The position numbers and the translations under genes are program-made. A DNA stretch of 64,000 nucleotides from an uncultured Desulfospira sp. (lineage in GTDB: Bacteria > Desulfobacterota > Desulfobacteria > Desulfobacterales > Desulfobacteraceae): positions 1,856,001 through 1,920,000 of the forward strand of contig OY760175.1 of the NCBI GenBank assembly GCA_963663165.1, given 5' to 3'. Positions 5,332 to 32,829 of the stretch are shown here, one piece after another. The number at the start of each line of letters is the position of its first letter. Position 1 is the first letter of the stretch. The notes below the pieces were generated by a model. It did no database searches. It worked only from the letters and a program-made list of their open reading frames with translations, and was not told where the DNA came from.

Positions 5332-7201
5332 ATCGGGTAGGTCGGGGGCTTTACAGCCCCTTTCCCCCCTCAGAACCGTACGTGACAGTTTCCCGTCATA
5401 CGGCTCAAGCATTTCTAAGGCTGAGCCTTGCGGGGCCGCCCGGCTGTTTTCTCTTGCCAATGCTGAAATTTACAGTTATTTCATTACATATTTTCTCGGC
5501 CGCTGTGACAGGGATCACCTTTGGTTTCACCCGTCTTGCCCAGTGGATTTTATCCATGAAGGCCTGCACATTTTTCCTGGATGGTTTAATGAGCAGTTTG
5601 CCGTCATACTTACGAACGTTTTGGCCCAGAAAATCGAATCCCCGGTCAATTCGGGTAATCAGGGTCTTTTCTTCAGACAGGGATAGATCCCGTTCCGAGA
5701 GAAATCTGATTATGGCCGGTTTGACCTTGTCTTCAAGAAGTTCCCGGGTTGCACCGGTAATAATGAAATCATCAGCATACCGAATGACGTTGATTTTGGA
5801 ACTGATGTCCTTACCGTTGCGTCTGTCCCTGACAGGGGCAACAGATCCGGCAGTCCCTTCAATGCCGTCCAGAACCATGTTGGCCAGTGTGGGAGAGGCA
5901 ATGCCGCCTTGCGGCGTTCCCCGGAGGGATATGGTCGATCATCCAGTCATGGATAGTTTCATCAAATCAGGCTTTAATATCCGCTTCAAGTATCCAGACC
6001 GGCGAGGTTTTCTTGGCCAGTGTATTAAAGCATTGGGATATGGCGTCCGCACATCGCCTGTATGACCTGAATCCGTATGAATTGTGGTCGGCCAGTGTTT
6101 CTGCTATCGGCTCCACTGCCAGTTTATACAATGCCTGAACAGCCCTGTCGATCATTGTGGGAATACTTAACGAACGTTTCTTGCCGTTCTTTTTGGGAAT
6201 ATAGATCCGCCTGAGCGGTGATGGCTGGTATCCTCTCCGTTTGAGGTTGCCTGCTGCCTGGAATTTCTGCCTGGCGGTTTTCCAGGTGACGTTGTCGACA
6301 CCCGGAGTGCGTTTCCCTTTATTGGAGGTCACGCGTTTTACAGCTAACAGCTTTGCCTGGTAAGAGTGGGTCAGAAGCCACTGGAGGGCCTTGGCCCGTC
6401 CGTATCTTCCTTCTTTCACAGCCTTTGCGATACGCATTTGCAGTCTTTTAACAGCTTCATAAATGGCTTTCCAATGAATGGACTTCCAATTCCTGAAACT
6501 GCCGATGGGCGCACCAGCTGTTGCCGTCATTTGCCTTCCCATCTTCAAAGATTCTCCAGACTATCTCGCAAAGAAACACCTGCCCGGGTGTGCCTGTAGC
6601 CACACCCGCCGGACGTCAGCTCCCTTTCGGGCCGGATAATGTTGAAGGTCAGTAGATCCATCTCAATCCGTATCCACCTCATTACAAGACGGCATTCGCT
6701 TCTTCCTGCATCTTATTCCCGCACCCCCATCAGTGTGCCTTGCGGTTTCACCTGCCGAATGTTCCCGGCGAAGATACGGGGTTTCCACGTTCCGCATTAT
6801 TGCCAATTAGTGGATGACTTAGGCCTGCCCTCTGCACCGGCGGCGCAACATCTCCGTGCAGGCAGTTGAGAAACCTGCATCCTGACCGCTCACCTTTTGG
6901 TCCAAGCTTACCAGCCTCTTTAGCTTGTTCTCCCTGACGGTACTTACGGAACATTCAACTACTTTGACCATATCATCCAAACCCTTGCCCTCACCCGGAT
7001 TGAGGCTTCCAGGAGGGTATCTGCCTCACGGCTTCCACCCCTTCCACAGTTGCGGAATTCGGTACGTTGTCGGTTGGGCTTTACACCGTTGCCGGATGCA
7101 CCGACCACCGCATGCCATCTAGGGTACCGGCAGGAGAATGCCGGGTTTGGTCAGGACCGACTGGCCCGCCAAACAGCCAATAATGCGACTTCGTGTCGCA
7201 C
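5332..7201 (-). mobile_element. Group II intron I1 (chloroplast-like class) in attC R', RT pseudogene
   Basis: 5' GTGCGAC; domain V GAGCCGTATGACGGGAAACTGTCACGTACGGTTC; 3' ACCCGAT; 5' exon GTTGTCG. Confidence 0.92.
5405..6530 (-). pseudogene. ltrA: Group II intron RT/maturase, disrupted (stop plus ~71-bp deletion versus I5)
   Basis: RVT_N-type N-terminus, YADD; split into ORFs 5967-6548 and 5405-5878. Confidence 0.88.
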
Positions 7202-7334
7202 CGACAACGGGGAGCTGAGGGGCCAGGCTTTTAAACCCCAAAAAACTCCGATAAAAAGTTTAATTTTCCTGAACCAGGGACTCCCGAAAAGGCCGCGCCA
7301 GTAAGCCTGGTCCCTCTCCGGCGTTTTGTTGGCC
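7202..7334 (-). other. attC site 1 (last in array)
   Basis: R'' GGCCAAC ... CAGCTCCCC-GTTGTCG R'; arms CCAGGCTT/AAGCCTGG. Confidence 0.88.
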
Positions 7335-7720
7335 TAATTTTTGGAATAGACCGCTTTTAAATTTTCAATCATCGGGTAATGTTTGATATTTAGCGTTTTA
7401 AGCTGAGCATTTTTTGAATGACACGTTGCAGCAATGATGGCATCAGCCAATCCTACGCCATGAGATTTGCCGAAATCACGTTTATATAGTCCACCAATCT
7501 TAGCAATTTCAGAGGTAATTGGAATGACGTCAAAAAGGGAAACAAAATTATTCAAAATCGTTAATTCTTGTTTCCCCCTTACCCCTGCATAAAGTTCAGC
7601 GATCACTATCGTGGATAATATTATTTGAGATGCATTGTCATTTATAAAATCAACAGCTTGCTGATAGCCTCGTAAAAAATCAATAAGAACATCAGTATCA
7701 GGAAGGAATAATTGCGCCAT
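7334..7720 (-). CDS. vapC: VapC/PIN toxin (cassette)
   Basis: DTDVLIDFLRG, ELYAG, LADAIIAAT, TLNIKHY PIN motifs. Confidence 0.92.
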   Translation of the reverse strand: MAQLFLPDTDVLIDFLRGYQQAVDFINDNASQIILSTIVIAELYAGVRGKQELTILNNFVSLFDVIPITSEIAKIGGLYKRDFGKSHGVGLADAIIAATCHSKNAQLKTLNIKHYPMIENLKAVYSKN

Positions 7721-7722
7721 TT

Positions 7723-7956
7723 TTATTCCCTGTCCCATTCAGAACGCATTGTTTTAAAATCGGGGATATCTGACCGATCTTTCCAGAGGCCAGCGGTTTC
7801 ACATAATATTTTTTTTCGTCTTTCCTGACTTGCCTGTTCAATTAAAATATCAATTGCTTCTCGGATCAGTTCGCTTTGTTTTTTCCCTTGGATTTCTGAA
7901 AGAATGGCCAATTCAGTTCGTTGCTGATCAGTCAAATATATTTGAGTTCGTATCAT
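7723..7956 (-). CDS. RHH/CopG antitoxin (VapB-like)
   Basis: MIRTQIYLT...SELIREAID ribbon-helix-helix, directly upstream of vapC. Confidence 0.88.
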   Translation of the reverse strand: MIRTQIYLTDQQRTELAILSEIQGKKQSELIREAIDILIEQASQERRKKILCETAGLWKDRSDIPDFKTMRSEWDRE

Positions 7957-8077: not shown

Positions 8078-8082
8078 CAATT

Positions 8083-8937: not shown

Positions 8938-9472
8938 CTCGCGGTAGGAACGCCGGTTACCCGACGCCCCCCGCACAGACCCGGACGTGCGGTTTTCCCG
9001 CATCCGGTTCCTCGGTTATACTCGCTTTCGTGTAAGACATCCGTTTATGTAAACGCTCGATGTCGCCTGTTAACCACTCGCATCCTTGGTTTGGCAATAC
9101 CCAAAAGAGCCACTGCTCTGGTAAAGACTTCCCAGGTGAAGCTTTTCCGCTTCCCACCTCGACGATTCAACCACTTGAATGCACACTCTTCGGCCCAGCT
9201 GTAAAAATGCCATAATGCCGACAGGTTACCTGGTACATTATAATAGTTGTAATAGCCGCGCAACCGTCTATTCAACCCTTTTATAAAGGTGATTCCTTTT
9301 AAATGACGGTTATCCTTTATCCATTCCTTGATTCGCCGGCAGGCTCCTTGCAATTTCTTTGGCGCAGTCCGTTGTTTAACTTTCACGGTACCGGTTCTGT
9401 CTTTTTCCCAGAAGAGTTCAAAGCCTAAAAAGCTTATCCGTACTTTCATACCGGGATGGAAACGATTAAACC
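8938..9472 (-). mobile_element. 3' remnant of class-E-like group II intron (E1), truncated by IS66
   Basis: Domain V/VI GAACCGGATGCGGGAAAACCGCACGTCCGG...CCTACCGCGAG; maturase C-terminus FLGF...LNRRLRGYYNYY...WLNRRG. Confidence 0.85.
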
Positions 9473-9551
9473 GTGTCCCTTCGGTAAGCCTGCATGAATT
9501 AAGTTTTCGCAGCTGATATAACGGTCCCATCAACATTTTAAGGAAGGACCC

Positions 9552-15527: not shown

Positions 15528-15960
15528 ATCTGTAATATATCAACCTTCACTTTATTTGTCATGGTCTATTTCTTTAGAGATCGGGTAGCCGGGGGTAGTT
15601 GTCTACCCCAGGCCCCCTCAGAACCGTACGTGACAGTTTCCCGTCATACGGCTCAAGCATTTCTAAGGCTAAGCCTGGCGGGGCCGCCCGGTTGTTTAAG
15701 CAATAATGAAATTTACAGTTATTCCATAGCATGCTTCTTTGAGCATCCGCCAGGGAAGTACAGTTCTTTTTTCCCTGTTCAAAAAACCAGTGCTGACGCA
15801 TGAAAATTTATAGTCAATGATATCAATGACGCAGCTCGATATCCAAAATTATTTTGTCGCAAAATTTAAATAGACAAAATTTCGGCCTTTTGATAATGTA
15901 GCATAGGGTACGAATGAGCGCCCCCCCAATCGAGACACTACATTTGAAGAGGAGGATGTC

Positions 15961-16836
15961 GTGATTGTCCAATGTGGCCGGAAAATTAAAGACGAAGAGC
16001 TTATACAGATTTGCGAGACAGTAGAGACCTTTTCGAATTTGAGTCAGACTGAACTGGCTCATACAATATGCGAACATTTGGGCTGGTATACCGCTTCTGG
16101 TAGGAACAAGGTGGATGCCTGCCGGAAATTGCTTCTGCGACTGGAGTCCCAAGGTCTCATACGGTTGCCTGAAAAAGAGAAACTCGGTCCCATAAAGGGC
16201 TCTCAACAGAAACTGCCGGTAGCGGACGACAGGACCCAGCCCCAAGATAAGGTAGCGGGCACGCTTTCGGATATCGGGCCGATCGTTGTCAGGGTCGCAC
16301 AAGACACGGAAGAACGCTCACTGGTTAATGAATACCTGCACCGTTACCATTATCTTGGCTACAAGCGGCCGTTCGGATGTCATCTGCGTTATTTGATACA
16401 AGCTCAAGAGCGCATATTGGGATGTATGCTGTTCTCAGGGGCGGCCAAGGCGCTGACCCCGAGGGATCGATGGATCGGCTGGAGCACCAACGAACGCTTA
16501 AGAAACTTGGGATTTGTTGTAAACAATGGACGCTTCCTGATTTTTCCGTGGGTCAAGGTCCGGTATCTGGCAAGTCACGTATTGGGTAAAATTGTCAGAG
16601 ATCTGGTGCAAGACTGGGAGCGGAGCTGGGGGTATCGGCCGGCTTTGCTGGAGACCTTTGTCGACCCACAACACTTCGATGGGACGTGCTATCGGGCGGC
16701 CAATTTTAGACACCTTGGCATGACCAGCGGAAAGGGGCTTGTCCGGCAGGGTAGAAGTTACAGGACCAGTCCCAAAAAAATCTTCGTTTATCCGCTGGTG
16801 AATAATTTCCGTCAGGTTTTGAGGCAGATCGGATGA
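15961..16836 (+). CDS. DUF4338 (DruA-like) protein
   Basis: YHYLGY, RDRWIGW, NNGRFLIFPW, LETFVDP, GTCYRAANF. Confidence 0.88.
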   Translation: MIVQCGRKIKDEELIQICETVETFSNLSQTELAHTICEHLGWYTASGRNKVDACRKLLLRLESQGLIRLPEKEKLGPIKGSQQKLPVADDRTQPQDKVAGTLSDIGPIVVRVAQDTEERSLVNEYLHRYHYLGYKRPFGCHLRYLIQAQERILGCMLFSGAAKALTPRDRWIGWSTNERLRNLGFVVNNGRFLIFPWVKVRYLASHVLGKIVRDLVQDWERSWGYRPALLETFVDPQHFDGTCYRAANFRHLGMTSGKGLVRQGRSYRTSPKKIFVYPLVNNFRQVLRQIG

Positions 16837-18461
16837 GCAAGCCTATCCGACGCCCCAATCGTGAGGAGATAAAGGCCAAAAGAAAGCAGTTTAAAAAGGA
16901 GCAGAGAAAATTACGTCGGGATGAAGAGGCCAGGGGATTTCAGCCGCCCTCTCATGGCACAATTTCTAACTGCAAATGCCGATATGAAAGTGTAGAACAG
17001 GAGGGGCGCATCCGCAATGAGGCCGTGGCTGAGAAAATGAGTATTTTTCGCGCTAAGCTGCCCATTCTGCTCAAACGTATGGCCAAGATTGAAGACCCTC
17101 GAAACCCTAAGAAGATAAAACACCAAATATCCACACTCATGATCTATGGGATACTGACCTTTGTGTTTCAGATGGCTTCTTGCCGTGAGGCCAACAAAGA
17201 AATGAGCCGGCCGATGTTCTGGAAGAATCTTCAATATTTTTTCCCGGAGCTTGAAACGCTTCCCCATCATGATACGTTAAAACGCCTATTGTCTAAGATT
17301 GATATCAATCAAATCAAGAAGCTTCATCTCGATCTGGTCAGAGATCTGATCCGGAAAAAGAAATTTCGACGGTACCTGGTCAATGGCTGTTATCCGATTG
17401 CCATAGATGGTACAGGTAAATTCAAACGCGACTGGCTTTGGGATGAAGAGTGCCTGGAACGTAACATCAAGAAAGAGGATGGCACCAGGAAACAGTATCA
17501 TGTCTATGTTCTGGAAGCTAATCTTGCGTTTTCCGATGGCATGAGCATTCCGCTGATAAGCGAAATCCTGAGCTACACCGAAGGAGATACCGCTAATGAT
17601 AAGCAGGACTGCGAACTCAAGGCGTTTTACCGGTTAGCCTCTTGCCTGAAGGCGGCATTTCCCGCCCTAAAAATTATGGTGCTTTTGGATGGGCTTTATG
17701 CCAAGGGCCCCGTGGCAGAAATTTGCCGAACAAACAAATGGCAGTTCATGATTGTACTGAAAGATGACGCTCTACCCAGCGTAATGAATGAATTTGAAAC
17801 GCTTGCCGCACTCGATACAGAAAACTGCCACCAACACACATGGGGCAATAGGAAACAGGTTTTTCGGTGGATCAACGCCATTGACTACCGGTTTGGTCCG
17901 AACGGCAAGAAAAGTCAAATCCTGCACGTTGTTGAATGCAAAGAGAGCTGGAAAGAGGTTAGCCGGGAAAGCGGTCAACCGGAAAAGAAAAATAGTCGTC
18001 ATGTGTGGTTGTCCAGCGAACCTTTGGACAGATTTAATCTTCACGAACGATGCAACATAGCCGCCCGTTCCCGTTGGTGTATTGAAACCGGTATTCTCGT
18101 TGAGAAACATCATGGATATGAGTACGAGCACTGTTTTTCGTATGATTGGATGCTAAGATTCAAAAAATGTAACGCGGATACGCCAAATCAGCTACAAAAT
18201 AATATAACGGGAAGATATCCCGCCGCTTTACCCCGCCAATAAAATATATAAACCTTACCTCGCTTACCCCGCAGTTATCCCGCCGCGAATTTTTTCGAAA
18301 AAAGCTTTGCCAATCTATTTGGAAGAAGTCAATACTTCCTTGATAAAAAAGGCTCGAAGCTGCAACTTCGAGCCTTCAATGTAGACATCCGAGTAGGTTA
18401 CGGAAGCCACACCACCGTTTTTATCTAACCACGGCTTCCGTAATTTAGCAAGAGCGGAAGC

Positions 18462-18851
18462 ATGGAAATCGTTTTATTAAAACGTATCGAGTGTAAGCGA
18501 TGTTTCCAAATTTTCTATGTGTGCCGCAGTTGCTGGCGGGGGCAGGCATATTGCTGTCAAGAATGCCGCCAGGAGGCCCGCAAAGAAGCGCACTGCAAAG
18601 CTCAAAAAAAATATCGACAAACGCCAAAAGGTAAAGAGGCCCACCGTCGTCAAGAAAAAAACAAAAGATTACGTCAAGCTGAAAAAACCATGGATGATAC
18701 ATCTACTATACCCGGTGTAACCCATGATAGTGTCTCTCCCAAGCCATTATGTTCCGGCCCCTGTTGCCATTTTTGTGGGAAAATTGGTTGGGTTGTAGAG
18801 CATTTTCCCTGGCGCGGATATGCAAAACGACCTGTAAGGGCCAATCAATGA
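18462..18851 (+). CDS. Cys-rich zinc-binding protein (T1)
   Basis: CKRC...CRSCWRGQAYCCQEC, basic helix. Confidence 0.75.
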   Translation: MEIVLLKRIECKRCFQIFYVCRSCWRGQAYCCQECRQEARKEAHCKAQKKYRQTPKGKEAHRRQEKNKRLRQAEKTMDDTSTIPGVTHDSVSPKPLCSGPCCHFCGKIGWVVEHFPWRGYAKRPVRANQ

Positions 18852-18860
18852 AACATCTTA

Positions 18861-19265
18861 ATGGAGGATAAGACAATGAAAAAAGAAATATTGACAGGCC
18901 ATTGCAACAAAATGAAAAACAGATTTTCATCCCGGGAGCTATTTAAACTGAGAAACGATATCCCTGTGGATATGCTGATCCGTGACCATTTACAGATTCC
19001 ATCCAAAATCAGGGATGGTGTTTTCCGGTTTTTATGTCCTTTGTGCAATGAGTTTCAAACCGCTGTAAATCCAGCCACCAATCTGGCCAGGTGTTTTCGG
19101 TGTGAGAAGAATTTCAACACCATTGATCTGGTCATGGAAGTCAAGGGATATGGATTCAGGGACAGTGTATTTTTTTTGAAAGAACTGGATGCGGTCTCCT
19201 ATGTCCCGGCAAATGTGTTGACGTCTCTTGCCACCGGTATCGGTCAACCCTGGCCTGGGAAGTAA
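18861..19265 (+). CDS. CHC2-type (primase zinc-binding) domain protein (T1)
   Basis: FLCPLC...RCFRCEKNFNTIDLVMEVKGYGFRDSV resembles the DnaG zinc-binding domain. Confidence 0.75.
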   Translation: MEDKTMKKEILTGHCNKMKNRFSSRELFKLRNDIPVDMLIRDHLQIPSKIRDGVFRFLCPLCNEFQTAVNPATNLARCFRCEKNFNTIDLVMEVKGYGFRDSVFFLKELDAVSYVPANVLTSLATGIGQPWPGK

Positions 19266-19267
19266 AG

Positions 19268-19822
19268 ATGAAACGGCTGCTTCAACTGGAGACCCTTATT
19301 GCCCGTAATCAGGAGAGTTTCTATAAGATCGGTCAGGCGTTAAAAGAAATCCGTGACAGCCGCCTGTACAAACTGGCCCTGTTTGAGACATTTGAAGCAT
19401 ATACCAGGGAACGGTGGGATATGGGCAAGTCCCATGCATACCGCCTGATCAAATCTTATGAAGTGATCTATAATTTGTCCCCAATTGGGGACAAAACACC
19501 TGCCAATGAATCCCAGGTCCGGCCTCTTGCTCAATTGGACCCCCTGGACCAGCGCAACACCTGGAAGGCAATCATAGACAACGGTATTGAGTTAACCGCA
19601 CGGAACATCAAAAAATTTGTAGAGGCCCAAAAAATACCCCCGGAGAACAAACCGGATTTGGCGGAACGGATTTCGGCTGAATACATGGCAGCCGTACATG
19701 CAATGATTGAACAGGTGCGGGTGGCCCAGCATGATCATTGGCAGCAAACGTCCCGGCAGGCTGCATTGTTGTGGCACAGGGTGATCCGCGAAAAAATTTT
19801 ATCAAAAGGGGCAAGACAATGA
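19268..19822 (+). CDS. Putative DNA-binding protein, DUF3102-like (T1)
   Basis: IGQALKEIRDSRLY...TFEAY...AYRLI...NESQVRPL. Confidence 0.7.
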   Translation: MKRLLQLETLIARNQESFYKIGQALKEIRDSRLYKLALFETFEAYTRERWDMGKSHAYRLIKSYEVIYNLSPIGDKTPANESQVRPLAQLDPLDQRNTWKAIIDNGIELTARNIKKFVEAQKIPPENKPDLAERISAEYMAAVHAMIEQVRVAQHDHWQQTSRQAALLWHRVIREKILSKGARQ

Positions 19823-21486
19823 AGAACCTGAGCCTTGATGACCGTTTTTATTTGCTGCTCCATAAAAAAATCATGAATAAAACCGGATCAGCCAAAAGAA
19901 GGTCCAAAAAATATTACAAAGACCAGTACAGGAAAACCGGCATTATCCCGACGCCCCTTCTACTGGTTGAAAAAGGGATTATGGACGGCCGCAAATGCAG
20001 CGGCCGGCCCCGGTCCATAGATGAACAAACCAAAAGGCGGTTTATCGAAATGGTCAAGGCCTCCTGTGACCCGTCATCCCAGGGGTTTATTTTTATTACC
20101 CGAAAAGCCAGAACCATTAAAAATTACCACTATTGGCTTGAAAGAGAATTGGGAAAAACCATCAGCCTTCCGGCACTCAGGCGATGTGCCCAAAGGGAAG
20201 GCCTTAAATTTTACCTGGAAAAAGAAGATTTTGAAGAAAATGCCCCGGTGAAAAACGCATTCAAGCCTGTTCCGGTGTTTGGCCTGATACAGGTAGACGG
20301 TTGCAACTTTCGATATTTAAAAATCAAAAATGAGGCTGGCCACTGGCAAAAACCCCAAGTCATTGAAACGTTTGATACCGGTTCCCGGTACATGTTTGAA
20401 CTTGATGCCTATTTCGATGAAAGCAGCTTAAGCTCAGTGGATTTGTTTAACCGGTTTTTGCTTTCCACCCCATTTCCCCAGAAGAAAGTCCGGTTCAGGC
20501 CGGATAACGCCACAGGATTTGTAAATCTCAAAAGAGTCATCAACGCCTTGAATATAAAACATTCCGTTCCCGGAGGATTTTATCTGGCGCCGGATTTTTC
20601 AAGGGTAAGTGCCCCCAGGGACAAGGCCCATCTTGAGTCCTCCCATCGCAGTCTTCATAATTTTGAAATCCGAATCATCAAGGCGTTTGAAGACAGGATT
20701 GTAAAGACCGTTCCAGGGGTTATCTTCAATAATAAGAAAAAAGAAAAAATCACTGTGACACTCCTTGATATTACACTCCGGGATTTAAGACACAGCCCCC
20801 TGATAAAAGAATACCGCCACGAACATAACCACACCAAACATTATTTTAGCGAAAATGGAAAGATCAGTGCATGGGTTCCGGCACAAAAGCTGGAAGAATT
20901 TTTATCAAGGCAAGCCGATATCCTTACCTTTTCACCGGATGAGGTGCAGGAATATATGAAGTATGGCTACAGGAAAATAAAAGCCACTGTATCTAACAAA
21001 AGAACCATTCGCCATGACAACCGGATCTATTGTGTAACCAGTGGTACAGACCGGTTCAGCAGGCATAAAAGTACACCGGTGCAAATATCAGTATATAAGG
21101 GCAAGCTGTTTATTTTTGAACGGGGGGAAGACGGCATACTATTGGGCGAAGCCCTTGCCACAAAGCCGTTTGACAAACCACCTGACCCAAAATCTGTACC
21201 AGTGGCCCCGGATGAACTCGACATGATGATCATTTTTCTGGAAAAGCACAACATGGCCGTCGACCGGCGAGTCTTAATTGAAGCTTATCATAGCGGCCTC
21301 ACTCTGGCCCGGGCTCAACAAGTGCTTCATCATAATCAATCCAGGTACAAGAATTATATGAAAAAGATGCGGCAACCTGAAACACAGAAAAAGCAGGCGG
21401 TATTCAATGCCTTTATGCTTGACTGCCGGAAATTGATCAATACAAACCATGTGGCCACGTATGCATCCTGCGGAGATTTAACATGA
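19819..21486 (+). CDS. Mu/Tn552-like DDE transposase (T1)
   Basis: GRPR, IQVDG, RPDNATGF, KAHLESSH catalytic-like motifs. Confidence 0.8.
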   Translation: MKNLSLDDRFYLLLHKKIMNKTGSAKRRSKKYYKDQYRKTGIIPTPLLLVEKGIMDGRKCSGRPRSIDEQTKRRFIEMVKASCDPSSQGFIFITRKARTIKNYHYWLERELGKTISLPALRRCAQREGLKFYLEKEDFEENAPVKNAFKPVPVFGLIQVDGCNFRYLKIKNEAGHWQKPQVIETFDTGSRYMFELDAYFDESSLSSVDLFNRFLLSTPFPQKKVRFRPDNATGFVNLKRVINALNIKHSVPGGFYLAPDFSRVSAPRDKAHLESSHRSLHNFEIRIIKAFEDRIVKTVPGVIFNNKKKEKITVTLLDITLRDLRHSPLIKEYRHEHNHTKHYFSENGKISAWVPAQKLEEFLSRQADILTFSPDEVQEYMKYGYRKIKATVSNKRTIRHDNRIYCVTSGTDRFSRHKSTPVQISVYKGKLFIFERGEDGILLGEALATKPFDKPPDPKSVPVAPDELDMMIIFLEKHNMAVDRRVLIEAYHSGLTLARAQQVLHHNQSRYKNYMKKMRQPETQKKQAVFNAFMLDCRKLINTNHVATYASCGDLT

Positions 21487-22145
21487 AGGCAGATTTTATC
21501 AGTGACAAACGAAGGGTATCATACCTGAGCGCCACTTATAGCCGGATCTACCGGGGCCGGAGCGTACTCATTGAGGGAGATTTTGGAGCGGGAAAAACCA
21601 GGTTTTTAAAACTGCTTCGTCCCAAAAAACTTCATGCCGTATGGGTAGAGTCCCTGTTCAACATACACGAAACCCTGGCATCCATACTCAAAGAATTGAA
21701 CTATGACACCACAGCCACATATCGCAGAACTCCCCAGTACCTGAAAATGATCTGCAACCTGTCCAACTGCTTTATTATTATTGATGAGGCCAATGATCTG
21801 GATACCAGGGTCTGGCCATATCTTAAGCGGATCATTGATGCCGGTGTTCCTATTGTTTTTGCAGGGCTTCCAAAGGTCAGGACCTATTTGATTCGCAATC
21901 ACCCTGATATCCTCAGCCGGTTGAAAACCCTGATTTTATATCCCATAGAGGTTGAGGGCTTTATCGAACAATATAAAGATATCCAGCAGGAAGCCGTTGA
22001 GCAAATTTATATGGCGGTCAAAGGCGACATGCGTAAATTTAAAGAAATCTGTACTGACTGCCGGGACAAGGCAAAGGAATTGAACCACCAATTTGTTGAC
22101 ATTAATCTTGCCCTGGAGTTTATATCTGACCTTCCTCCCCAGTAA
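21483..22145 (+). CDS. AAA+ ATPase, transposition helper (T1)
   Basis: Walker A GDFGAGKT, Walker B IIIDEA, SRL arginine finger. Confidence 0.88.
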   Translation: MKADFISDKRRVSYLSATYSRIYRGRSVLIEGDFGAGKTRFLKLLRPKKLHAVWVESLFNIHETLASILKELNYDTTATYRRTPQYLKMICNLSNCFIIIDEANDLDTRVWPYLKRIIDAGVPIVFAGLPKVRTYLIRNHPDILSRLKTLILYPIEVEGFIEQYKDIQQEAVEQIYMAVKGDMRKFKEICTDCRDKAKELNHQFVDINLALEFISDLPPQ

Positions 22146-23647
22146 TCCCTGAAAAGTAGATCCGTAAAAACAGGCCACTTCTGATTTAACCGGAAGATGG
22201 CCTGTTTATATTTTGACCTTAATTGATTAACGCAATTTTTCGCCTGGATATACCTGTGAAAATCAGGGAACCACAGATTGTTTTTGAATCTTTTTTGAAC
22301 CGTTACATTAATTTGCAACTTTCAATATTTTTGACTGCCAACCTAACCTACTAAATTTATATGAAAAACCATTTCTTTTTTGAAATAATGAACGAAAAAA
22401 AATCCGTTACATTATTTGAATGTGAGCAATTGGAACGTCATGAAAGGGTATCATGCCTTGATGCGCCTGGGCCATATGTTTAACGTTTTGGCCAGATACT
22501 CGCAGCGGCTTGCCAGGATTATTGAAGATACCGGCGCACGGGGCCTGATTCGTTTAGTCCGGGATACCATGTCCGGCCCGTGGCTGGATTACATGTGGCT
22601 GGAAGATCGTCTGTCCACTCCCTTTCAACTCCGATTAGTATGACGGCAACGACGGACGGGTAATCGAAAACACTCTCCCAAGCAGAGAGGTGGGAACGCT
22701 ATGTTCGGACCGAAGGACCGTCTTTCGTTTCGGCCATAGTCAGTGTCTGAAGGACTGCCTTTTTGAATTAAAAAAGGCTGGATCTCCCCCCAAAGGGAGT
22801 GGTTAGATCGACTAAAGCCAACCTTTTTTTATTCATGCGTCAGCACTGTCAAAAAACATACGTCCTTTGAAAATGCCTCTGGATGTGCATGCCGTGTGCT
22901 TCTCTAACAACCTTTGCGATACTCATCTACAGTCTTTTAACAGTATAAACTGCTGATGGGCGCACCAGCTATTGCCGTCATTTGCTTTCCCATCCTCAAA
23001 GATTCTCCAGACTCTCTCGCAAAGAAACACCTGCCCGGGTGTGCCTGTAGCCACACCCGCCGGACGTCAGCTCCCTTTCGGGCCGGGTGATGTTGGGATG
23101 TTCTCCTCAACCCGTATCCACCTTATTACAAGATTGGCCTTCGCTTTTTCCTGCATCTTACTCCCGCACCCCCATCTGTGTGCCTTACGGTTTCACCTGC
23201 CGAATGTCCCCGGCGAGGATACGGGGTTTCCACGTTCCACATTATTGCCAATTAATGGATGACTTAGGCCTGCCCACTGCACCGGCGGCGCAACATCTCC
23301 GTGCAGGCAGTTGAGAAACCTGCATCCTGACCGCTAACCTTTTGGTCCAAGCTTATCAGCCTCTTTAGCTTGTTCTCCCTGACGACGCTTGAAGAACATT
23401 CAATTAATTTGACCATATCATCCAAACCCTTGCCCTCACCCGGAATGAGGCTTCCAGGAGGGTATCCGCCTCACGGCTTCCACCCCTTCCGCAATTGCGG
23501 AATTCGGTACGTTGTCGGTTGGGCTTCACACCGTTGCCGGATGCACCGGGAACCGCATGCCACCTAGGGTACCGGCAGGAGAATGCCCGGGTTTGGTCAG
23601 GACCGACAGGCCCGCCAAACAGCCAATAATGCGACCTCGTGTCGCAC

Positions 23648-23774
23648 CCGAACGGGGAGCTCAGCCGACCGGGGCATACAGCCGAGCAGATTGTCGAAGC
23701 CAAGTTTTTTCGAAAACCAAGGACTTTCGAAAAGCCGCTATCCCCCCCGGGTCGGCTGCAGCGTTTTGTTCTCT
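23648..23774 (-). other. attC site 4
   Basis: R'' AGAGAAC; CAGCCGACC/GGTCGGCTG arms; R' GTTCGG^intron. Confidence 0.88.
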
Positions 23775-23805
23775 TTATATTCTTGAATGGTTACCCCGGC
23801 CCCTT

Positions 23806-24393: not shown

Positions 24394-24843
24394 AGTTAAA
24401 ACTATAACGCCATGTGTTAAATGTCAAGCGTGTGTTTTTAAGAAATCGGGTAGCCGGGGGTAGTTATCTACCCCAGGCCCCCTCAGAACCGTACGTGACA
24501 GTTTCCCGTCATACGGCTCAAGCATTTCTAAGGCTAAGCCTTGCGGGGCCGCCCGGTTGTTTGAGCAATAATGAAATTTACAGTCATTTCATAGCATGCG
24601 TCCTTGGGCATCGGCCAGGAAGTACTGTTTTTTTCTATAACCGCAAATGACAGTTGGATTTTTTCAACCAACTGATTTTTAATTCAATTAATACAACTTG
24701 TTTCAATTTGCAAAGTATATGTTTTAGTCGTTGAATCGAAAAACTCTAAGATTCTGGGCGAAATGGATTATTTTTCCTGTTATTGCTTCGTAGTATATGA
24801 TATTATTTGGCACAAATATCATATACTACGAAGAGAGGTTGTC

Positions 24844-25509
24844 ATGCCTATTATCGACGTTCAAAAAATTGAATCGGCCAGATCAACGCTTAAAAAACAA
24901 AAAATTTTTACCCTCAAAAAGCTTGTTTCAATTCTGGATTGTTCCTCCAGAACTGCCCAAACAAAACTTAAACAGTGGAAGACCTACACAAGTTACAATC
25001 AAAACGGGAAGTATTATACTTTGCCTGAAATCCCTCAATTTGACGTTTATGGTATATGGCAATTTAAAAATGCCGCGTTCTCTAAGTATGGTAATCTAAA
25101 AAAAACCATTATCCATTTAGTGAACTCCTCATCTGAAGGGCTTACCGGCAGACAACTTGGTGAACTTCTTGGGTTATCACCACAATCCTTTGTGCATCAT
25201 TTCCGTAGTTGTCCGGGTATCTGTCGAGAAAAGCACGCTGGTGTCTATGTCTACTTCTCTGACAACATTTCAATATTTAAAAATCAAGTAAAACAAAGGA
25301 GTTCCCTTGTCCTCCGTCAAGCGGCTATTTCCATTTCTGACCAGGAAGCAGTCATGATTCTGGTTGCTATTATCAGGCATCATGGCATATCCGCAGAAGA
25401 CATTTTGGGCTTGCCGGAGATCAAAAAGAGCAAACTAAAGCCGGCTAATATCCAAGGATTTATGGAGTCTCATGAGTTGTTAAAAAAAATTCCGGATTCC
25501 AAGCATTAA
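24844..25509 (+). CDS. IS ORF1, HTH-like protein
   Basis: RBS GAGAGG; SYNQNGKYYTL; winged-HTH-like segments. Confidence 0.75.
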   Translation: MPIIDVQKIESARSTLKKQKIFTLKKLVSILDCSSRTAQTKLKQWKTYTSYNQNGKYYTLPEIPQFDVYGIWQFKNAAFSKYGNLKKTIIHLVNSSSEGLTGRQLGELLGLSPQSFVHHFRSCPGICREKHAGVYVYFSDNISIFKNQVKQRSSLVLRQAAISISDQEAVMILVAIIRHHGISAEDILGLPEIKKSKLKPANIQGFMESHELLKKIPDSKH

Positions 25510-25559
25510 AACTGCTCAAAAGCTTTATCTCCAAGCTGACTGGGTCCGTCCAAACTAGT

Positions 25560-27314
25560 GTGCTATTCTCAGCAAAGCCGACTTTGCATTTTTACCCGGA
25601 AATTTTAAAATGCCCTGATTGTAATTCTACACTCCATGTTCAGAAAACCGATACGAAGACCAGGGTCACCATGGACATCGGTGCCTATTTTGCCAAGGAA
25701 ACGGTATTGTATTGCCCCCACGGTCACGGAACGTTCAGGTCCGAACAGCTTCGAAACCTTGTACCCAGGGGCGGCACTTTCGGGTTTGATGTCATTGTGG
25801 AGGTGGGGTTTGCACTTTTTGTCCGTTGTCTCAGCAATCAGGAGGTCATGGCTGAATTGGCGATCAAGAATGTATTCATCTCTGAACGGGAGATCAGCTT
25901 TCTGGGCCGTAAGTTTATCATTTATCTTGCCCTGGCTCACCGACAGAGCCGGCCGGCTCTGCGAAAGTTCTTCACAAGCAGGGGAGGATATATCCTTCAT
26001 GTGGATGGAACTTGTGAAGATGATAGCCCCAATCTATTTTGCGGCCTTGACGGACTCTCAGAACTGGTCCTTGATACGGTAAAAATTTCTTCAGAGAAAA
26101 AAGATGAGCTCATCCCATTTTTCCGTAGCATCAAAGAGCAGTATGGTGAACCAAGGGCACTCGTACACGATATGGGTAAAGGGATTGTCAGTGCGGTGGA
26201 GGAAGTTTTCCCAGGGACACCCGATTTTATATGTCATTTTCATTTCCTGCGTGACATTGGCAAAGACCTGCTAGCTGATGAATATAGTTTTTTGCAGAAA
26301 CGGTTAAAGAAACTCAAGGTTCGACCTGCATTGAGGAGGCAGGCCAAGTATCTTGAGAAAAAAATTGATCCGGTCGGCAAGGATATTGATGAAATTATTG
26401 AGAGCCTTCAAAGTGGGAATTGGCAGGCAACTGATTTCGATCATATCCCCACGATTATGGCATATGCTTTAATCCATTGGATATTTGACTATCCAAATCA
26501 ATCCAACGGATATGGTTTCCCTTTTGACCGTCCATACCTTGATTTTTATCGACGTCTTCAAGATGTTCTCCGGTTGCTGGAACAAATCATGACCGTGAAC
26601 CTCAGTGAGGCAGCAAATTTAAACAGAGCCTTTTCCCAATTATATAAAGTAGTCATAAAAGTCGTAGAAGATAAGCGTCTTAATGATCTTGCCAAAAACA
26701 TGGAATCAAAGGCAGCCGTATTTGACAAGCTGCGTTGTGCTATGCGAATTGCCCTTCCTGATGGCAAAAATGGCATTAATGATAATGGCGATTCCATGAA
26801 CATGAAAAGTATTGAAGAAAAAGTGACTGAATTCAGGAACTGGCTCCTTGAGAATAAACACAGACAAAAAACCTATGCTAACATGGTGGCACAGATTGAC
26901 AAATACTGGGAAAAGCTCTTTGCCGACCCGATACCAGTCGTCACATCGGACGGAATTTTTACGGTCCAACCACAGAGGACGAATAACCTTCTGGAGAGAT
27001 TTTTCCGGGATGAAAAACGACGAGGTCGGAAAAAAACCGGCATGGGATCGCTGAACAAAATGCTAAAAGCGGTCCTTGCCGACACGCCGCTGGTGCAAAA
27101 TTTAAAAAACGACAAGTATATGGAGATTATTCTCAATGGATGTTCCAACCTGGCAGAAAGGTTTTCACAAATTGATGCTGATCTGGTACAAAAAGAGCTG
27201 ACCAAGGCGGCTGAAAACAATTGCAAAATATTCCCGGGGATCAAAAAAATGATAAGGGATACTGAATTAACGGTAAAAATCTCAACGCTGTTTTGTCCAG
27301 CAGATGCAAAATAA
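25560..27314 (+). CDS. MULE-like DDE transposase
   Basis: LHVDGT, LVHDMGKG, CHFH (CxxH), RTNNLLERFF. Confidence 0.85.
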   Translation: MLFSAKPTLHFYPEILKCPDCNSTLHVQKTDTKTRVTMDIGAYFAKETVLYCPHGHGTFRSEQLRNLVPRGGTFGFDVIVEVGFALFVRCLSNQEVMAELAIKNVFISEREISFLGRKFIIYLALAHRQSRPALRKFFTSRGGYILHVDGTCEDDSPNLFCGLDGLSELVLDTVKISSEKKDELIPFFRSIKEQYGEPRALVHDMGKGIVSAVEEVFPGTPDFICHFHFLRDIGKDLLADEYSFLQKRLKKLKVRPALRRQAKYLEKKIDPVGKDIDEIIESLQSGNWQATDFDHIPTIMAYALIHWIFDYPNQSNGYGFPFDRPYLDFYRRLQDVLRLLEQIMTVNLSEAANLNRAFSQLYKVVIKVVEDKRLNDLAKNMESKAAVFDKLRCAMRIALPDGKNGINDNGDSMNMKSIEEKVTEFRNWLLENKHRQKTYANMVAQIDKYWEKLFADPIPVVTSDGIFTVQPQRTNNLLERFFRDEKRRGRKKTGMGSLNKMLKAVLADTPLVQNLKNDKYMEIILNGCSNLAERFSQIDADLVQKELTKAAENNCKIFPGIKKMIRDTELTVKISTLFCPADAK

Positions 27315-28151
27315 ATACCAACCGTCATTTGCGGTCATAGGTTTTTTTTCCTGGTCAAAGACATACGTCCTTTGAAAATGCCTTGGATGTAAATGCCGTA
27401 CGCTCCTTTAACAACCTTTGCGATACGCATCTACAGTCTTTTAGCAGCATAAAGCTGCTGATGGGCGCACCAGCTAATGCCGTCATTTGCTTTCCCATCT
27501 TAAAAGATTCTCTAAACTCTCTCGCAAAGAAACACCTGCCCGGGTGTGTCTGTAGTCACACCCACCGGACGTCAGCTTCCTTTCGGACCGGGTAATATCG
27601 GGGTTTTCTCCTCAACCCGTATCCACCTCATTACGAGATGGCCTTCGCTTTTTTCCTGCATCTTACGCCCGCACCCCCATCAGTGTGCCTTGCGGTTTCA
27701 CCTGCCGAATGTTCCCGGCGAAGATACGGGGTTTCCACGTTCCACATTATTGCCGATTAATGGATGACTTAGGCCTGCCCACTGCACCGGCGGCGCAACA
27801 TCTCCGTGCAGGCAGTTCCGACACCTGCATCCTGACCGCTCACCTTTTGGTCCAAGCTTACCAGCCTCTTTAGCTTGTTCTCCCTGACGACGCTTAAGGA
27901 ACATTCAATTAATTTGACCATATCATCCAAACCCTCGCCCTCACCCGGATTGAGGCTTCCAGGAGGGTATCCGCCTCACGGCTTCCACCCCTTCCGCAAC
28001 TGCGGAATTCGGTACTTTGTCGGTTGGGCTTCACACCGTTGCCGGATGCACCGACCACCGCATGCCACCTAGGGTACCGGCAGGAGAATGCCGGGTTTGG
28101 TCAGGACCGACAGGCCTGCCAAACAGTCAATAATGCGACCTCGTGTCGCAC

Positions 28152-28280
28152 CACAACGGGGAGCTGAGGGGCCAGGCTTTTAAACCCAAAAAGCGCCAAT
28201 AAAAGTTTAAATTTCCCTGAACCAGGCACTCCCAAAAGGCCGCTCTGTAAGCCTGGTAACTCTCCAACGTTTTGTTCAAG
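28152..28280 (-). other. attC site 5
   Basis: R'' CTTGAAC; R' GTTGTG^intron. Confidence 0.88.
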
Positions 28281-29150: not shown

Positions 29151-30142
29151 ATCGGGTAGCCGGGGGTAGTTATCTACCCCAGGCCCCCTCAGAACCGTAC
29201 GTGACAGTTTCCCGTCATACGGCTCAAGCATTTCTAAGGCTAAGCCTTGCGGGGCCGCCCGGTTGTTTGAGCAATAATGAAATTTACAGTCATTTCATAG
29301 CATGCGTCCTTGGGCATCGGCCAGGAAGTACTGTTTTTTTTCCTGGTCAAAGACATACGTCCTTTGAAAATGCCTTGGATGTAAATGCCGTACGCTCCTT
29401 TAACAACCTTTGCGATACGCATCTACAGTCTTTTAGCAGCATAAAGCTGCTGATGGGCGCACCAGCTAATGCCGTCATTTGCTTTCCCATCTTAAAAGAT
29501 TCTCTAAACTCTCTCGCAAAGAAACACCTGCCCGGGTGTGTCTGTAGTCACACCCACCGGACGTCAGCTTCCTTTCGGACCGGGTAATATCGGGGTTTTC
29601 TCCTCAACCCGTATCCACCTCATTACGAGATGGCCTTCGCTTTTTTCCTGCATCTTACGCCCGCACCCCCATCAGTGTGCCTTGCGGTTTCACCTGCCGA
29701 ATGTTCCCGGCGAAGATACGGGGTTTCCACGTTCCACATTATTGCCGATTAATGGATGACTTAGGCCTGCCCACTGCACCGGCGGCGCAACATCTCCGTG
29801 CAGGCAGTTCCGACACCTGCATCCTGACCGCTCACCTTTTGGTCCAAGCTTACCAGCCTCTTTAGCTTGTTCTCCCTGACGACGCTTAAGGAACATTCAA
29901 TTAATTTGACCATATCATCCAAACCCTCGCCCTCACCCGGATTGAGGCTTCCAGGAGGGTATCCGCCTCACGGCTTCCACCCCTTCCGCAACTGCGGAAT
30001 TCGGTACTTTGTCGGTTGGGCTTCACACCGTTGCCGGATGCACCGACCACCGCATGCCACCTGGGTACCGGCAGGAGAATGCCGGGTTTGGTCAGGACCG
30101 ACAGGCCTGCCAAACAGCCAATAATGCGACCTCGTGTCGCAC
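29151..30142 (-). mobile_element. ORF-less group II intron I4 (992 bp, uninterrupted)
   Basis: GTGCGAC...ACCCGAT; only a short RT remnant in domain IV; 5' exon GTTCTCG matches R'' GGAGAAC. Confidence 0.92.
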
Positions 30143-30269
30143 CGAGAACGGGGAGCTGAGCCGACCGGGGCATACAGCCGAGCAGGTTGTCGAAGCCAAG
30201 TTTTTTCGAAAACCAGGAGCTTCCGAAAAGCCGCGAGCCCCCCGGGTCGGCTGCAGCGTTTTTTTGTGC
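30143..30269 (-). other. attC site 7 (R'' mutated to GCACAAA)
   Basis: Same family as site 4; AAC changed to AAA. Confidence 0.83.
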
Positions 30270-30274
30270 CAATA

Positions 30275-30604
30275 TTATTGACTGAGACGAGAACTGACGA
30301 GCCTATTTATACTTACCCCTGATTCTGCTGCTTGGATCGCCAAACTTCTATGAACTTCCGGTGGAACACGAACCATAAATTTACCACTATAATTTTTTGA
30401 AACGATTGGCTGTGGAATTCTTTCATCATTGTCTTTCATATCTTGAATGACCGATTCCACCGTTTTACGAATACCTTTTAATGCTGATTCAGGAGATTTG
30501 GCCAGCCAGCTTAAGCTTGGGAATTCCGCACATAAGCCGATATATTCTTCGTCTTCAGGAGACCAAGTAACCCTATATGTATAATGATCATTTAGTAGTG
30601 TCAC
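30275..30604 (-). CDS. hicB: HicB antitoxin
   Basis: YTYRVTWSPED...YSGKFMVRVPPEVHRSL. Confidence 0.9.
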   Translation of the reverse strand: MTLLNDHYTYRVTWSPEDEEYIGLCAEFPSLSWLAKSPESALKGIRKTVESVIQDMKDNDERIPQPIVSKNYSGKFMVRVPPEVHRSLAIQAAESGVSINRLVSSRLSQ

Positions 30605-30848
30605 TTTCTTCCTCCAATCTTTCAATAGCCTTGATCACTTGCTTAACTTGATAGGCTTTTGCTTTTCCTTTACTGTTTTGAATATTTACCCGAGGGTCAC
30701 CTTGCCATGGTGTTTTATATATTCGATGACTGCTACCAGATTGGCGAGCCTTTCCAAAATAATGTTCACAGACCCTGCATAAATCTGTAAATTTTACATT
30801 GGTTGGATTTTTATAAATCTCATTTAATAGCTTTTCAATTTGGCCCAT
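30588..30848 (-). CDS. hicA: HicA toxin
   Basis: GSSHRIYKTPWQGDPRVNIQ...AKAYQVKQ. Confidence 0.9.
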   Translation of the reverse strand: MGQIEKLLNEIYKNPTNVKFTDLCRVCEHYFGKARQSGSSHRIYKTPWQGDPRVNIQNSKGKAKAYQVKQVIKAIERLEEESDTTK

Positions 30849-30895
30849 GTTTATATGATACTAATATTGATACTATTGTCAACGGTGTTTTTAGG

Positions 30896-32829
30896 ATCGG
30901 GTAGGTCGGGGGCTTTACAGCCCCTTTCCCCCCTCAGAACCGTACGTGACAGTTTCCCGTCATACGGCTCAAGCATTTCTAAGGCTGAGCCTTGCGGGGC
31001 CGCCCGGCTGTTTTCTCTTGCCAATGCTGAAATTTACAGTTATTTCATTACATATTTTCTCGGCCGCTGTGACAGGGATCACCTTTGGTTTCACCCGTCT
31101 TGCCCAGTGGATTTTATCCATGAAGGCCTGCACATTTTTCCTGGATGGTTTAATGAGCAGTTTGCCGTCATACTTACGAACGTTTTGGCCCAGAAAATCG
31201 AATCCCCGGTCAATTCGGGTAATCAGGGTCTTTTCTTCAGACAGGGATAGATCCCGTTCCGAGAGAAATCTGATTATGGCCGGTTTGACCTTGTCTTCAA
31301 GAAGTTCCCGGGTTGCACCGGTAATAATGAAATCATCAGCATACCGGATGACGTTGATTTTGGAACTGATGTCCTTACCGTTGCGTCTGTCCCTGACAGG
31401 GGCAACAGATCCGGCAGTCCCTTCAATGCCGTCCAGAACCATGTTGGCCAGTGTGGGAGAGGCAATGCCGCCTTGCGGCGTTCCCCGGCCTGTTGGAAAG
31501 AATTTACCGTCCTCCATAAACCCGGAAGCCAGCCATTTGGTAAGGATCATCTTATCCATAGGGATATGGTCGATCATCCAGTCATGGCTGATTTCATCAA
31601 AGCAGGCTTTAATATCCGCTTCAAGTATCCAGACCGGCGAGGTTTTCTTGGCCAGTGTATTAAAGCATTGGGATATGGCGTCCGCACATCGCCTGTATGA
31701 CCTGAATCCGTATGAATTGTGGTCGGCCAGTGTTTCTGCTATCGGCTCCAATGCCAGTTTATACAATGCCTGAACAGCCCTGTCGATCATTGTGGGAATA
31801 CTTAACGGACGTTTCTTGCCGTTCTTTTTGGGAATATAGATCCGCCTGAGCGGTGATGGCTGGTATCCTCTCCGTTTGAGGTTGCCTGCTGCCTGGAATT
31901 TCTGCCTGGCGGTTTTCCAGGTGACGTTGTCGACACCCGGAGTGCGTTTCCCTTTATTGGAGGTCACGCGTTTTACAGCTAACAGCTTTGCCTGGTAAGA
32001 GTGGGTCAGAAGCCACTGGAGGGCCTTGGCCCGTCCGTATCTTCCTTCTTTCACAGCCTTTGCGATACGCATTTGCAGTCTTTTAACAGCTTCATAAATG
32101 GCTTTCCAATGAATGGACTTCCAATTCCTGAAACTGCCGATGGGCGCACCAGCTGTTGCCGTCATTTGCCTTCCCATCTTCAAAGATTCTCCAGACTCTC
32201 TCGCAAAGAAACACCTGCCCGGGTGTGCCTGTAGCCACACCCGCCGGACGTCAGCTCCCTTTCGGGCCGGATAATGTTGGGATGTTCTCCTCAATCCGTA
32301 TCCACCTCATTACAAGATGGCCTTCGCTTTTTCCTGCATCTTACTCCAGCACCTCCATCAGTGTGCCTTACGGTTTCACCTGCCGAATACTCCCGGCGAA
32401 GATACGGGGTTTCCACGTTCCACACTATTGCCAATTAGTGGATGACTTAGGCCTGCCCTCTGCACCGGCGGCGCAACATCTCCGTGCAGGCAGTTAGGAA
32501 ACCGGCAGCCTGACCGCTCACCTTTTGGTCCAAGCTTACCAGCCTCTTTAGCTTGTTCTCCCTGACGGTACTTACGGAACATTCAACTACTTTGACCATA
32601 TCATCCAAACCCTTGCCCTCACCCGGATTGAGGCTTCCAGGAGGGTATCTGCCTCACGGCTTCCACCCCTTCCGCAGTTGCGGAATTCGGTACGTTGTCG
32701 GTTGGGCTTCACACCGTTGCCGGATGCACCGACCACCGCATGCCACCTAGGGTACCGGCAGGAGAATGCCGGGTTTGGTCAGGACCGACTGGCCCGCCAA
32801 ACAGCCAATAATGCGACTTCGTGTCGCAC
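30896..32829 (-). mobile_element. Group II intron I5 (chloroplast-like class) with RT ORF
   Basis: GTGCGAC/ACCCGAT ends; inserted at GTTGTG^C. Confidence 0.93.
30969..32177 (-). CDS. ltrA: Group II intron reverse transcriptase; X domain apparently truncated, no endonuclease
   Basis: RVT_N-type N-terminus, GTPQGG, RYADD, FDFLG; lacks the usual RGWxNY segment. Confidence 0.88.
   Translation of the reverse strand: MGRQMTATAGAPIGSFRNWKSIHWKAIYEAVKRLQMRIAKAVKEGRYGRAKALQWLLTHSYQAKLLAVKRVTSNKGKRTPGVDNVTWKTARQKFQAAGNLKRRGYQPSPLRRIYIPKKNGKKRPLSIPTMIDRAVQALYKLALEPIAETLADHNSYGFRSYRRCADAISQCFNTLAKKTSPVWILEADIKACFDEISHDWMIDHIPMDKMILTKWLASGFMEDGKFFPTGRGTPQGGIASPTLANMVLDGIEGTAGSVAPVRDRRNGKDISSKINVIRYADDFIITGATRELLEDKVKPAIIRFLSERDLSLSEEKTLITRIDRGFDFLGQNVRKYDGKLLIKPSRKNVQAFMDKIHWARRVKPKVIPVTAAEKICNEITVNFSIGKRKQPGGPARLSLRNA

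Follow-up and report, generated by a model that had tools for sequence, protein, structure and literature searches.

Group II introns assigned to subgroup IIB1 with guide sequences complementary to integron attC sites in an uncultured Desulfospira sp.

Results

The stretch of DNA analysed here, called the window, is 64,000 nucleotides long and comes from an uncultured Desulfospira sp. (contig OY760175.1 of GenBank assembly GCA_963663165.1, positions 1,856,001 to 1,920,000). It carries five group II introns, named A to E, within a cluster of attC sites, the recombination sites of integron cassettes. Rfam gave five matches to RF02012 (domains I to IV) and six to RF00029 (domains V and VI), all on the minus strand. 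The introns start with GUGCGAC at window positions 7201 (A), 23647 (B), 28151 (C), 30142 (D) and 32829 (E), and end in CCCGAU at 5332, 15580, 24445, 29151 and 30896, respectively. GUGCG is present at all five starts and, with the CCCGAU ends, fits the group II boundary rule of 5' GUGYG and 3' AY.

Two of the introns contain coding sequence. In intron A (5332..7201, minus strand, 1870 nt; RF02012 at 6987-7145 and RF00029 at 5332-5408) the reverse transcriptase frame is broken into two open reading frames (ORFs; 5967-6548 and 5405-5878, minus strand) and has no maturase domain. Intron E (30896..32829, minus strand, 1934 nt) has a 402-aa ORF at 30972-32177 with the RVT_N and RVT_1 domains and without GIIM. 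Introns B, C and D are ORF-less, and D (29151..30142, minus strand, 992 nt), delimited by Rfam and blastn, is the uninterrupted form of this derivative. Intron B (15580..23647, minus strand) is split in domain IV by an insert of about 7.07 kb at 15784-22851, as seen from Rfam and from the blastn alignment of D, in which query positions 1-794 fall at 23647-22852 and 792-994 at 15783-15578. Intron C (24445..28151, minus strand) has a 2.7-kb insertion at 24635-27340, also in domain IV, and is 99.75-100% identical to D (query 1-810 at 28151-27341 and 803-992 at 24634-24445); query positions 803-810, found on both flanks of the insertion, are read from the sequence as an 8-bp duplication. Both interruptions lie within about 15 nt of the same spot of domain IV. 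The insert of intron C includes a 584-aa ORF (25560-27314) with a weak match to Mutator transposases, and that of intron B (15784-22851) includes a DruA-like gene, a DDE_Tnp_1_assoc gene, a 582-aa ORF and an AAA_22 gene.

The 5' exons of the five introns, all read on the minus strand, have the anatomy of attC bottom strands. The flank of intron A occupies 7202..7334, from GGCCAAC to GCTCCCCGTTGTCG, with the intron-binding sequences (IBS) IBS2a, IBS2 and IBS1 at its 3' end. Those of the others are 23648..23775 for B (ending GCTCCCCGTTCGG; hairpin z -2.87), 28152..28280 for C (ending GCTCCCCGTTGTG), 30143..30264 for D (ending GCTCCCCGTTCTCG; fold z -2.82) and 32830..32937 for E (ending GCTCCCCGTTGTG). 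All five end in GCTCCCCGTT followed by three or four bases, which gives GTTGTCG (A), GTTCGG (B), GTTGTG (C and E) and GTTCTCG (D). When folded as single-stranded DNA, they form an AAC/GTT stem (R box), an unpaired AAAAC/TCCCC spacer, an L box stem and a variable top. In the site of A, AACG and CGTT pair at the base of the hairpin with the L-box arms beyond, and the site of B is closed by GAAC/GTTC with AAAAC and TCCCC unpaired. By this modelled anatomy each flank is the bottom strand of an attC site; the assignment was made from folds and motif context, and only two of the five flanks fold better than shuffled sequence.

The introns thus lie on the attC bottom strand, antisense to the cassettes, and the larger ORFs of the region are mostly on the plus strand. 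The target reads G-CUCCC-C-GUUNNG|C, in which IBS2a (G) is followed by IBS2 (CUCCC), a single spacer base, IBS1 (GUUNNG) and, across the junction, IBS3 (C). Here GUUNNG|C is the seven-base R'' box of the bottom strand, with the junction between its sixth and seventh bases, and CUCCC is made of the last L'' base and the unpaired central spacer. In the genome copies the first base of the 3' exon is C at eight junctions and T at two. Sites of the form AGCTCCC(C/T)GT(T/C) in attC-like context number 33 in the genome, in three clusters (counted from the site list), and 11 of them are occupied by introns, including those of four consecutive cassettes in the window.

A single integron integrase (TIGR02249) scores above the curated cut-off in the genome, at genome positions 4194663-4195604. 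Since it lies at 4.19 Mb, the window (1.86-1.92 Mb) is an attC cluster without its own integrase. The integrase gene, on the plus strand, sits right of another intron-rich attC cluster (genome positions 4179355-4195604), and as the attC bottom strands of that cluster are on the minus strand, its cassettes appear to point towards intI, not away from it. A rule based on the replication strand was considered and rejected as inconsistent: with the origin at about 3.95 Mb and the terminus at about 0.70 Mb by GC skew, the window is lagging-strand template and the other two clusters are leading.

The encoded proteins point to a class other than that of the introns previously linked with attC sites. 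The best match of the intron E protein in the PDB is 6me0_C (E 5.5e-129), while the IIC enzymes represented there (6ar1, 7uim, 5hhj and 5hhl) match this protein or that of relative L009 at only 1e-27 to 1e-36; for the intron E protein alone, the three IIC enzymes give about 1e-27. L009, a full-length relative 74% identical over query residues 2-356, matches 6me0_C at 8.1e-156 over residues 7-420. The structures 6ME0 and 6MEC are of Th.e.I3 (T.el4h) of Thermosynechococcus, described in passages of PMC8643678 as a IIB1 intron with a chloroplast-like 1 (CL1) protein. The best plasmid relatives share about 60% identity, and their proteins are about 568 aa long. Class IIC introns have a CGC triad in domain V. 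In the window introns domain V starts with GAGC, reading GAGCCGUAU, and contains the AGC triad, which a figure legend of PMC7923331 gives as a mark of IIB introns. On the match to Th.e.I3/T.el4h, the AGC triad and the presence of the exon-binding sequences (EBS) EBS2 and EBS2a documented below, the introns are assigned to subgroup IIB1 with a CL1-type reverse transcriptase and are distinct from the known IIC-attC introns.

An earlier reading of the window, made from the sequence only, had proposed that a stem-loop of domain I serves as EBS1, with the plus-strand letters GTTGAG at 6865 and 23310, GTTCCG at 27815 and 29807 and GTTAGG at 32493, and every one of these positions and sequences is correct. 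On the minus strand they are the RNA hexamers CUCAAC (6865-6870 in A, 23310-23315 in B), CGGAAC (27815-27820 in C, 29807-29812 in D) and CCUAAC (32493-32498 in E), within intron nt 331-338. The GGGAG that the same reading placed some 60 nt upstream, before a CAAGCT/AGCTTG stem, is present in all five introns at a distance of 64 nt (intron nt 267-273), followed by AACAAGCU...AAGCUUGG. It occupies 6930-6934 in A, 23375-23379 in B, 27880-27884 in C, 29872-29876 in D and 32558-32562 in E, all on the minus strand. EBS2a, a C at 6936 in intron A, is the middle of the three bases before EBS2, two nt upstream of it, and faces a G in the window. EBS3 is the G in GGUGCA[G]AGGGC, at 6832, 23277, 27782, 29774 and 32460 (minus strand) in A to E; the 3' exons of these introns begin with C or U.

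In the window, introns B, C and E form five of six EBS1 pairs in register, counting G-U, as had been stated, and A and D have the 7-nt exon tails. The bare hexamer GTTGAG occurs at the chance level (24 matches, with 25.15 expected), and five of six pairs are close to the 4.75 expected once GUU and the last G are fixed. Thus, the window alone cannot decide the placement of the guides, and its significance comes from their structural position and from covariation in relatives.

For this purpose 79 loci encoding relatives of the protein were fetched, domain I was aligned by an nhmmer profile (blastn was patchy) and the junctions were extracted. An RNAalifold consensus of 52 sequences contains 41 pairs, 34 of them with compensatory changes. 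In it CNNAAC is found in the loop that caps a helix supported by compensatory changes, and GGGAG in the single-stranded segment that separates a helix from the CAAGCY...RGCUUG hairpin. IIB1 introns carry their EBS1, of 5-6 nt, in such a terminal loop, within subdomain ID. Structure modelling, which might have put EBS1 elsewhere, keeps it in the CNNAAC loop. Fixed-register pairing was counted over 49 distinct junctions, with three rows that have only gaps in the scored columns counted as unpaired, and with two tandem junctions of one locus (L012) excluded because their 5' flank is the 3' end of another intron. EBS1 makes 211 of 294 possible pairs with the exon (shuffled-exon mean 110, maximum 139) and pairs at all six positions in 20 of the 49 junctions, against a shuffled mean of 1.04. 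For EBS2 and exon positions -9..-13 there are 168 of 245 pairs (shuffled mean 90.9, maximum 117), with all five positions paired in 19 of 49 (shuffled mean 1.05). In free register the EBS2 duplex energy is -5.78 with cognate exons versus -3.27 kcal/mol, and none of 20000 permutations was as low. A subclade from Acidobacteria has CCUCC, CUUCC, CUGCC, UCCCC and CGGCC opposite GGAGG, GGAAG, GGCAG, GGGGG and GGCUG at the EBS2-IBS2 pairing.

The smaller contacts behave in the same way. EBS2a is Watson-Crick with exon position -14 in 30 of 47 cases (shuffled mean 15.3, maximum 26); such an EBS2a-IBS2a pair is described for IIB1 and IIB2 introns in passages of PMC8643678. With 3' ends taken from RF00029 matches in 40 loci, the EBS3 column is Watson-Crick with the first 3'-exon base in 28 of 38 cases, and the runner-up column in 16; the EBS3 of IIB1 introns, which makes this contact, is located in an internal loop of domain I. 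The GGGAG of the window introns shares alignment columns with the covarying EBS2 of the relatives. Its IBS2 register is shifted by one base (-12..-8), a shift common to the window introns and their closest relatives L009 and L013, and one-base shifts from -13..-9 are noted for some introns in PMC8643678. Taken together, the consensus structure and the exon covariation in about 48 relatives from other genomes support the proposed placement, with CNNAAC as EBS1 and GGGAG as EBS2 of the window introns. In the folded bottom strand CUCCC, the complement of GGGAG, lies for the most part in the unpaired spacer.

The two variable bases of EBS1 stand out among the 14 copies of the intron in the genome, which are 90-99.8% identical over their first 640 nt. 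Positions 333 and 334 rank fifth and second in entropy among 638 columns, and both belong to the only nine columns that are triallelic. The copies are recombinant mosaics: 71 informative sites fall in blocks, and each of the three main EBS1 alleles occurs with both types of flanking stem. Thus, the sharing of an EBS1 allele says little on recurrent mutation, and homoplasy cannot be used as a sign of it.

The proteins of the window introns have RVT_N and RVT_1 and lack the maturase (X) domain, which is present in relative L009. The ORF-bearing copies of the window lack about 373 nt encoding this domain, which are found in the copy at genome positions 5573100-5575411; this copy aligns in one frame through residue 417 of the L009 protein. 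Compared with A, intron E and the copies at genome positions 4185668, 4191082 and 5575411 contain 72 additional nt at query position 1277/1278. With no maturase domain in A and E and no ORF in B, C and D, all five would depend on a protein made in trans, and the copy at 5573100-5575411 is a candidate source of this helper protein.

In a quick maximum-likelihood tree of 75 proteins, the clade that holds the window intron (SH-aLRT 97, mostly Thermodesulfobacteriota) has GTT near the junction in 12 of 22 informative rows, versus one of 24 in the other clade; the label is crude, requiring only a GTT within the last eight exon bases. The flanks of several relatives fold as AAC...GTT hairpins of 54-80 nt.

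Discussion

In this work, we describe a group II intron family that occupies a fixed base of attC bottom strands, and whose guides are complementary to conserved parts of these sites. We regard it as highly probable that this is one IIB1/CL1 family homing to attC bottom strands through RNA-DNA pairing at four places, with mismatches at the NN bases of EBS1 tolerated. The family, related to Th.e.I3/T.el4h and EcI5, would home into the bottom strand antisense to the cassettes. The C of EBS2a would pair with the G 5' of CUCCC; EBS2 (GGGAG) with CUCCC, which spans the last L'' base and the unpaired spacer; EBS1 (CNNAAC) with GUUNNG, bases one to six of the bottom-strand R''; and the G of EBS3 with the seventh R'' base, C and sometimes U, which would become the first base of the 3' exon. 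As 11 of the approximately 13 recognised bases are invariant in the attC family, any member site could be a target. If these 11 bases suffice and mismatches at the other two are tolerated, the NN of EBS1 would be free to vary. The introns would have arrived by retrohoming and would be mobilised in trans.

RNA-guided choice of a target is the textbook mechanism of group II introns. Of the RNA-guided attC recognition put forward in the sequence-only reading, the pairing of intron RNA with conserved parts of attC is supported; the mechanism as such is not unusual, and it is the IIB1 class that is. Here the ordinary IIB1 pairing is directed at a site that had until now been associated with class C alone.

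Several observations weigh against the reading just given. In the genome itself none of the 13 informative junctions has a full six-position EBS1-IBS1 match, while relatives usually have six of six; the EBS-IBS covariation that the sequence-only reading had proposed to look for is thus present in relatives from other genomes, and for EBS1 none was found within this one. At five junctions the exon tail measures 7 nt, and AAC can face GUU only if one exon base bulges out. A control with reversed EBS2 also prefers cognate exons (-4.71 versus -3.45), which means that base composition makes up part of the EBS2 energy signal, and the GGGAG of the window family, taken alone with its own exons, ranks fourth among 43 foreign exons. 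Moreover, two genome copies lie at attC sites with CUUAUC in place of CUCCC, and the copy at genome position 903578 has a differing EBS2 region, so that EBS2 pairing is not universal. Finally, part of intron D was found in 22 sequencing runs, and no splicing or mobility was seen in the four runs examined, whose short assembled contigs carry no strand or splice information and never join across intron D.

The initial expectation was that these are ordinary group IIC-attC introns of the S.ma.I2 type, which would recognise the attC hairpin and a 3-4 bp IBS1, with the EBS2 match coincidental. Passages of PMC7923331 and PMC3001079 describe the IIC-attC introns S.ma.I2, E.c.I7, G.s.I1 and N.e.I1 at the R'' end of the attC bottom strand, antisense to cassettes and also in attC clusters without an integrase, and the window introns have the same position, opposite to cassette transcription. 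As known through citing papers, the IIC-attC introns are of class C, with an EBS1 of 3-4 bp and a hairpin that replaces IBS2; they insert at TTGT|T in R'' and have no EBS2 (PMC7923331, PMC3001079, PMC4424553). In contrast, the window introns are assigned to IIB1/CL1, with a 6-bp EBS1 as well as EBS2, EBS2a and EBS3, and their junction is GTTNN(N)G|C, the form GTTNNG|C being four bases 3' of the published IIC site. Since their protein is far closer to IIB1/CL1 than to IIC enzymes, and EBS2 and EBS2a covary with the exon where IIC introns have no EBS2 (passages of PMC8643678 and PMC7923331), this identity was dropped and appears to us very improbable. Passive multiplication, by duplication or by IntI-mediated movement of cassettes that already held an intron, would trace the complementarity to one ancestral insertion. 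The intron does lie inside the cassette, between the ORF and R'', and so would travel with it, in a region with many IS elements and much recombination. However, the occupied attC sites are of at least two body types and differ in their R'' tails and 3' exons, one tandem copy interrupts another intron 3 nt from its start, at a point followed by C, and relatives in other genomes show site-specific EBS-IBS matches. Multiplication of this kind is therefore improbable as an alternative to homing.

A different question is whether the EBS1 dinucleotide is under diversifying selection, each copy being retargeted to a particular R'' variant, as the diversifying guides of the sequence-only reading implied. 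The unusual polymorphism of the NN bases holds good, with both positions triallelic and among the most variable columns, and every EBS1 allele finds a cognate R'' variant somewhere in the genome once G-U pairs are allowed (GTTAGG, GTTGGG, GTTCTG and GTTCGG). CGGAAC is found twice at GTTCTCG, in different attC bodies. In addition, of the five 7-nt tails, four can form all three CNN pairs if one exon base bulges out to keep AAC in register with GUU, which is suggestive and leaves room for chance. Tracking of the local R'' bases was not found at the 13 junctions, where full in-register pairing is absent as noted above, and the two variable positions of the eight 6-nt tails form 9 of 16 possible pairs, with 6 of 16 expected by chance. 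Cognate sites also hold the wrong allele: a CUCAAC intron occupies GTTAGG, and CUCAAC and CCUAAC introns occupy GTTCGG. In our reading, the NN bases may be under relaxed constraint, which explains their variability as well as adaptive retargeting does, and the mosaic copies mean that recombination or relaxed constraint can give the same pattern as diversifying selection. Retargeting seems unlikely, with some evidence on its side.

Homing by the IIB1 family to attC sites, as preferred here, has parallels in several known systems. The protein matches to Th.e.I3 (T.el4h; E 5.5e-129 to 8.1e-156) and an IBS2 at -13..-9 with one-base shifts tie the family to the IIB1/CL1 introns, among them Th.e.I3 and EcI5, and the T. 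elongatus intron family, in which many ORF-less copies are mobilised in trans (passages of PMC8643678), resembles it in having ORF-less copies. Unlike Th.e.I3 and EcI5, which have unrelated home sites, the window family has EBS1, EBS2 and EBS3 that match conserved parts of integron sites, and its window-encoded proteins have lost the X domain. In the literature searched, which fell short of most subscription papers and of the primary IIC-attC papers, UHB.I2 was the only IIB intron found together with integrons. This IIB1/CL1 intron adjoins an attC in a soda-lake metagenome (passages of PMC7923331) and shares with the window introns its subgroup and its place inside a cassette array. It lies in cassette orientation just downstream of the attC, and the main-text passages of PMC7923331 report neither exon conservation nor EBS-attC complementarity for it; in contrast, the window introns are antisense, at a fixed R'' base and in many copies. 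The IS1111-attC insertion sequences ISPa21 and ISPst6, specialised on the attC 5' end and antisense to cassettes (passages of PMC3001079), are also a separate mobile lineage specialised on attC; unlike the introns, these DNA transposons use a transposase, with neither ribozyme nor RNA guides.

A wider proposal is that attC homing arose a second time, separately from the IIC-attC lineage and by a different mechanism, in a clade of chloroplast-like IIB1 introns found mainly in genomes of the sulfate-reducer type (Thermodesulfobacteriota) and sporadically in other phyla. These introns would read the attC sequence and not the hairpin shape, using EBS2 and EBS2a for the central spacer, EBS1 for R'' and EBS3 for its last base. 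AAC would be anchored on the universal GTT core while the adjacent two bases drift or diversify, which would let the family saturate an array; in this genome introns hold four consecutive cassettes and a third of the matching attC sites. On this wider proposal we are nearly undecided, with a slight lean towards doubt. So far, attC homing by group II introns has been seen as confined to a single class C lineage, in which a hairpin stands in for IBS2; if the proposal is true, a IIB1 intron would provide a second, independent solution, with about 13 bases of programmable pairing. This bears on the convergence of mobile elements on integron sites, on the idea, cited in passages of PMC7923331 and PMC3001079, that introns join genes to attC sites in the genesis of cassettes, and on the aiming of IIB1 targetron-type tools at attC families. 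It would also be a natural example of a guide in which one half is held to a conserved core and the other varies.

Other features of the region

Introns of this family are also found in tandem. In the intron-rich cluster beside the integrase (genome positions 4188776-4191082, minus strand) one copy interrupts another behind its third base, so that the downstream copy starts with CGACACG, and in locus L012, from Desulfatiglandales, introns follow the 3' end of the previous intron without a gap (1814-1891 and 4039-4117).

Within the window, a weak domain V/VI match at 8938-9012 on the minus strand (41.1 bits, with a cut-off of 40) lies beside a 163-aa ORF with a GIIM domain (9045-9536, minus strand), and the two together resemble a 3' remnant of some other group II intron. 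A DruA-like gene (PF14236) occurs twice, at 10361-12791 and 15961-18242 on the plus strand, each time directly before a transposase-type gene (IS66 DDE and DDE_Tnp_1_assoc), a pairing that is unusual for this domain of the Druantia family. Between 36266 and 61528 there are several repeat families (D2-D9, D16 and D18) of four to five copies, 97-100% identical and 2-16 kb apart, which probably represent insertion sequences of this same attC cluster.

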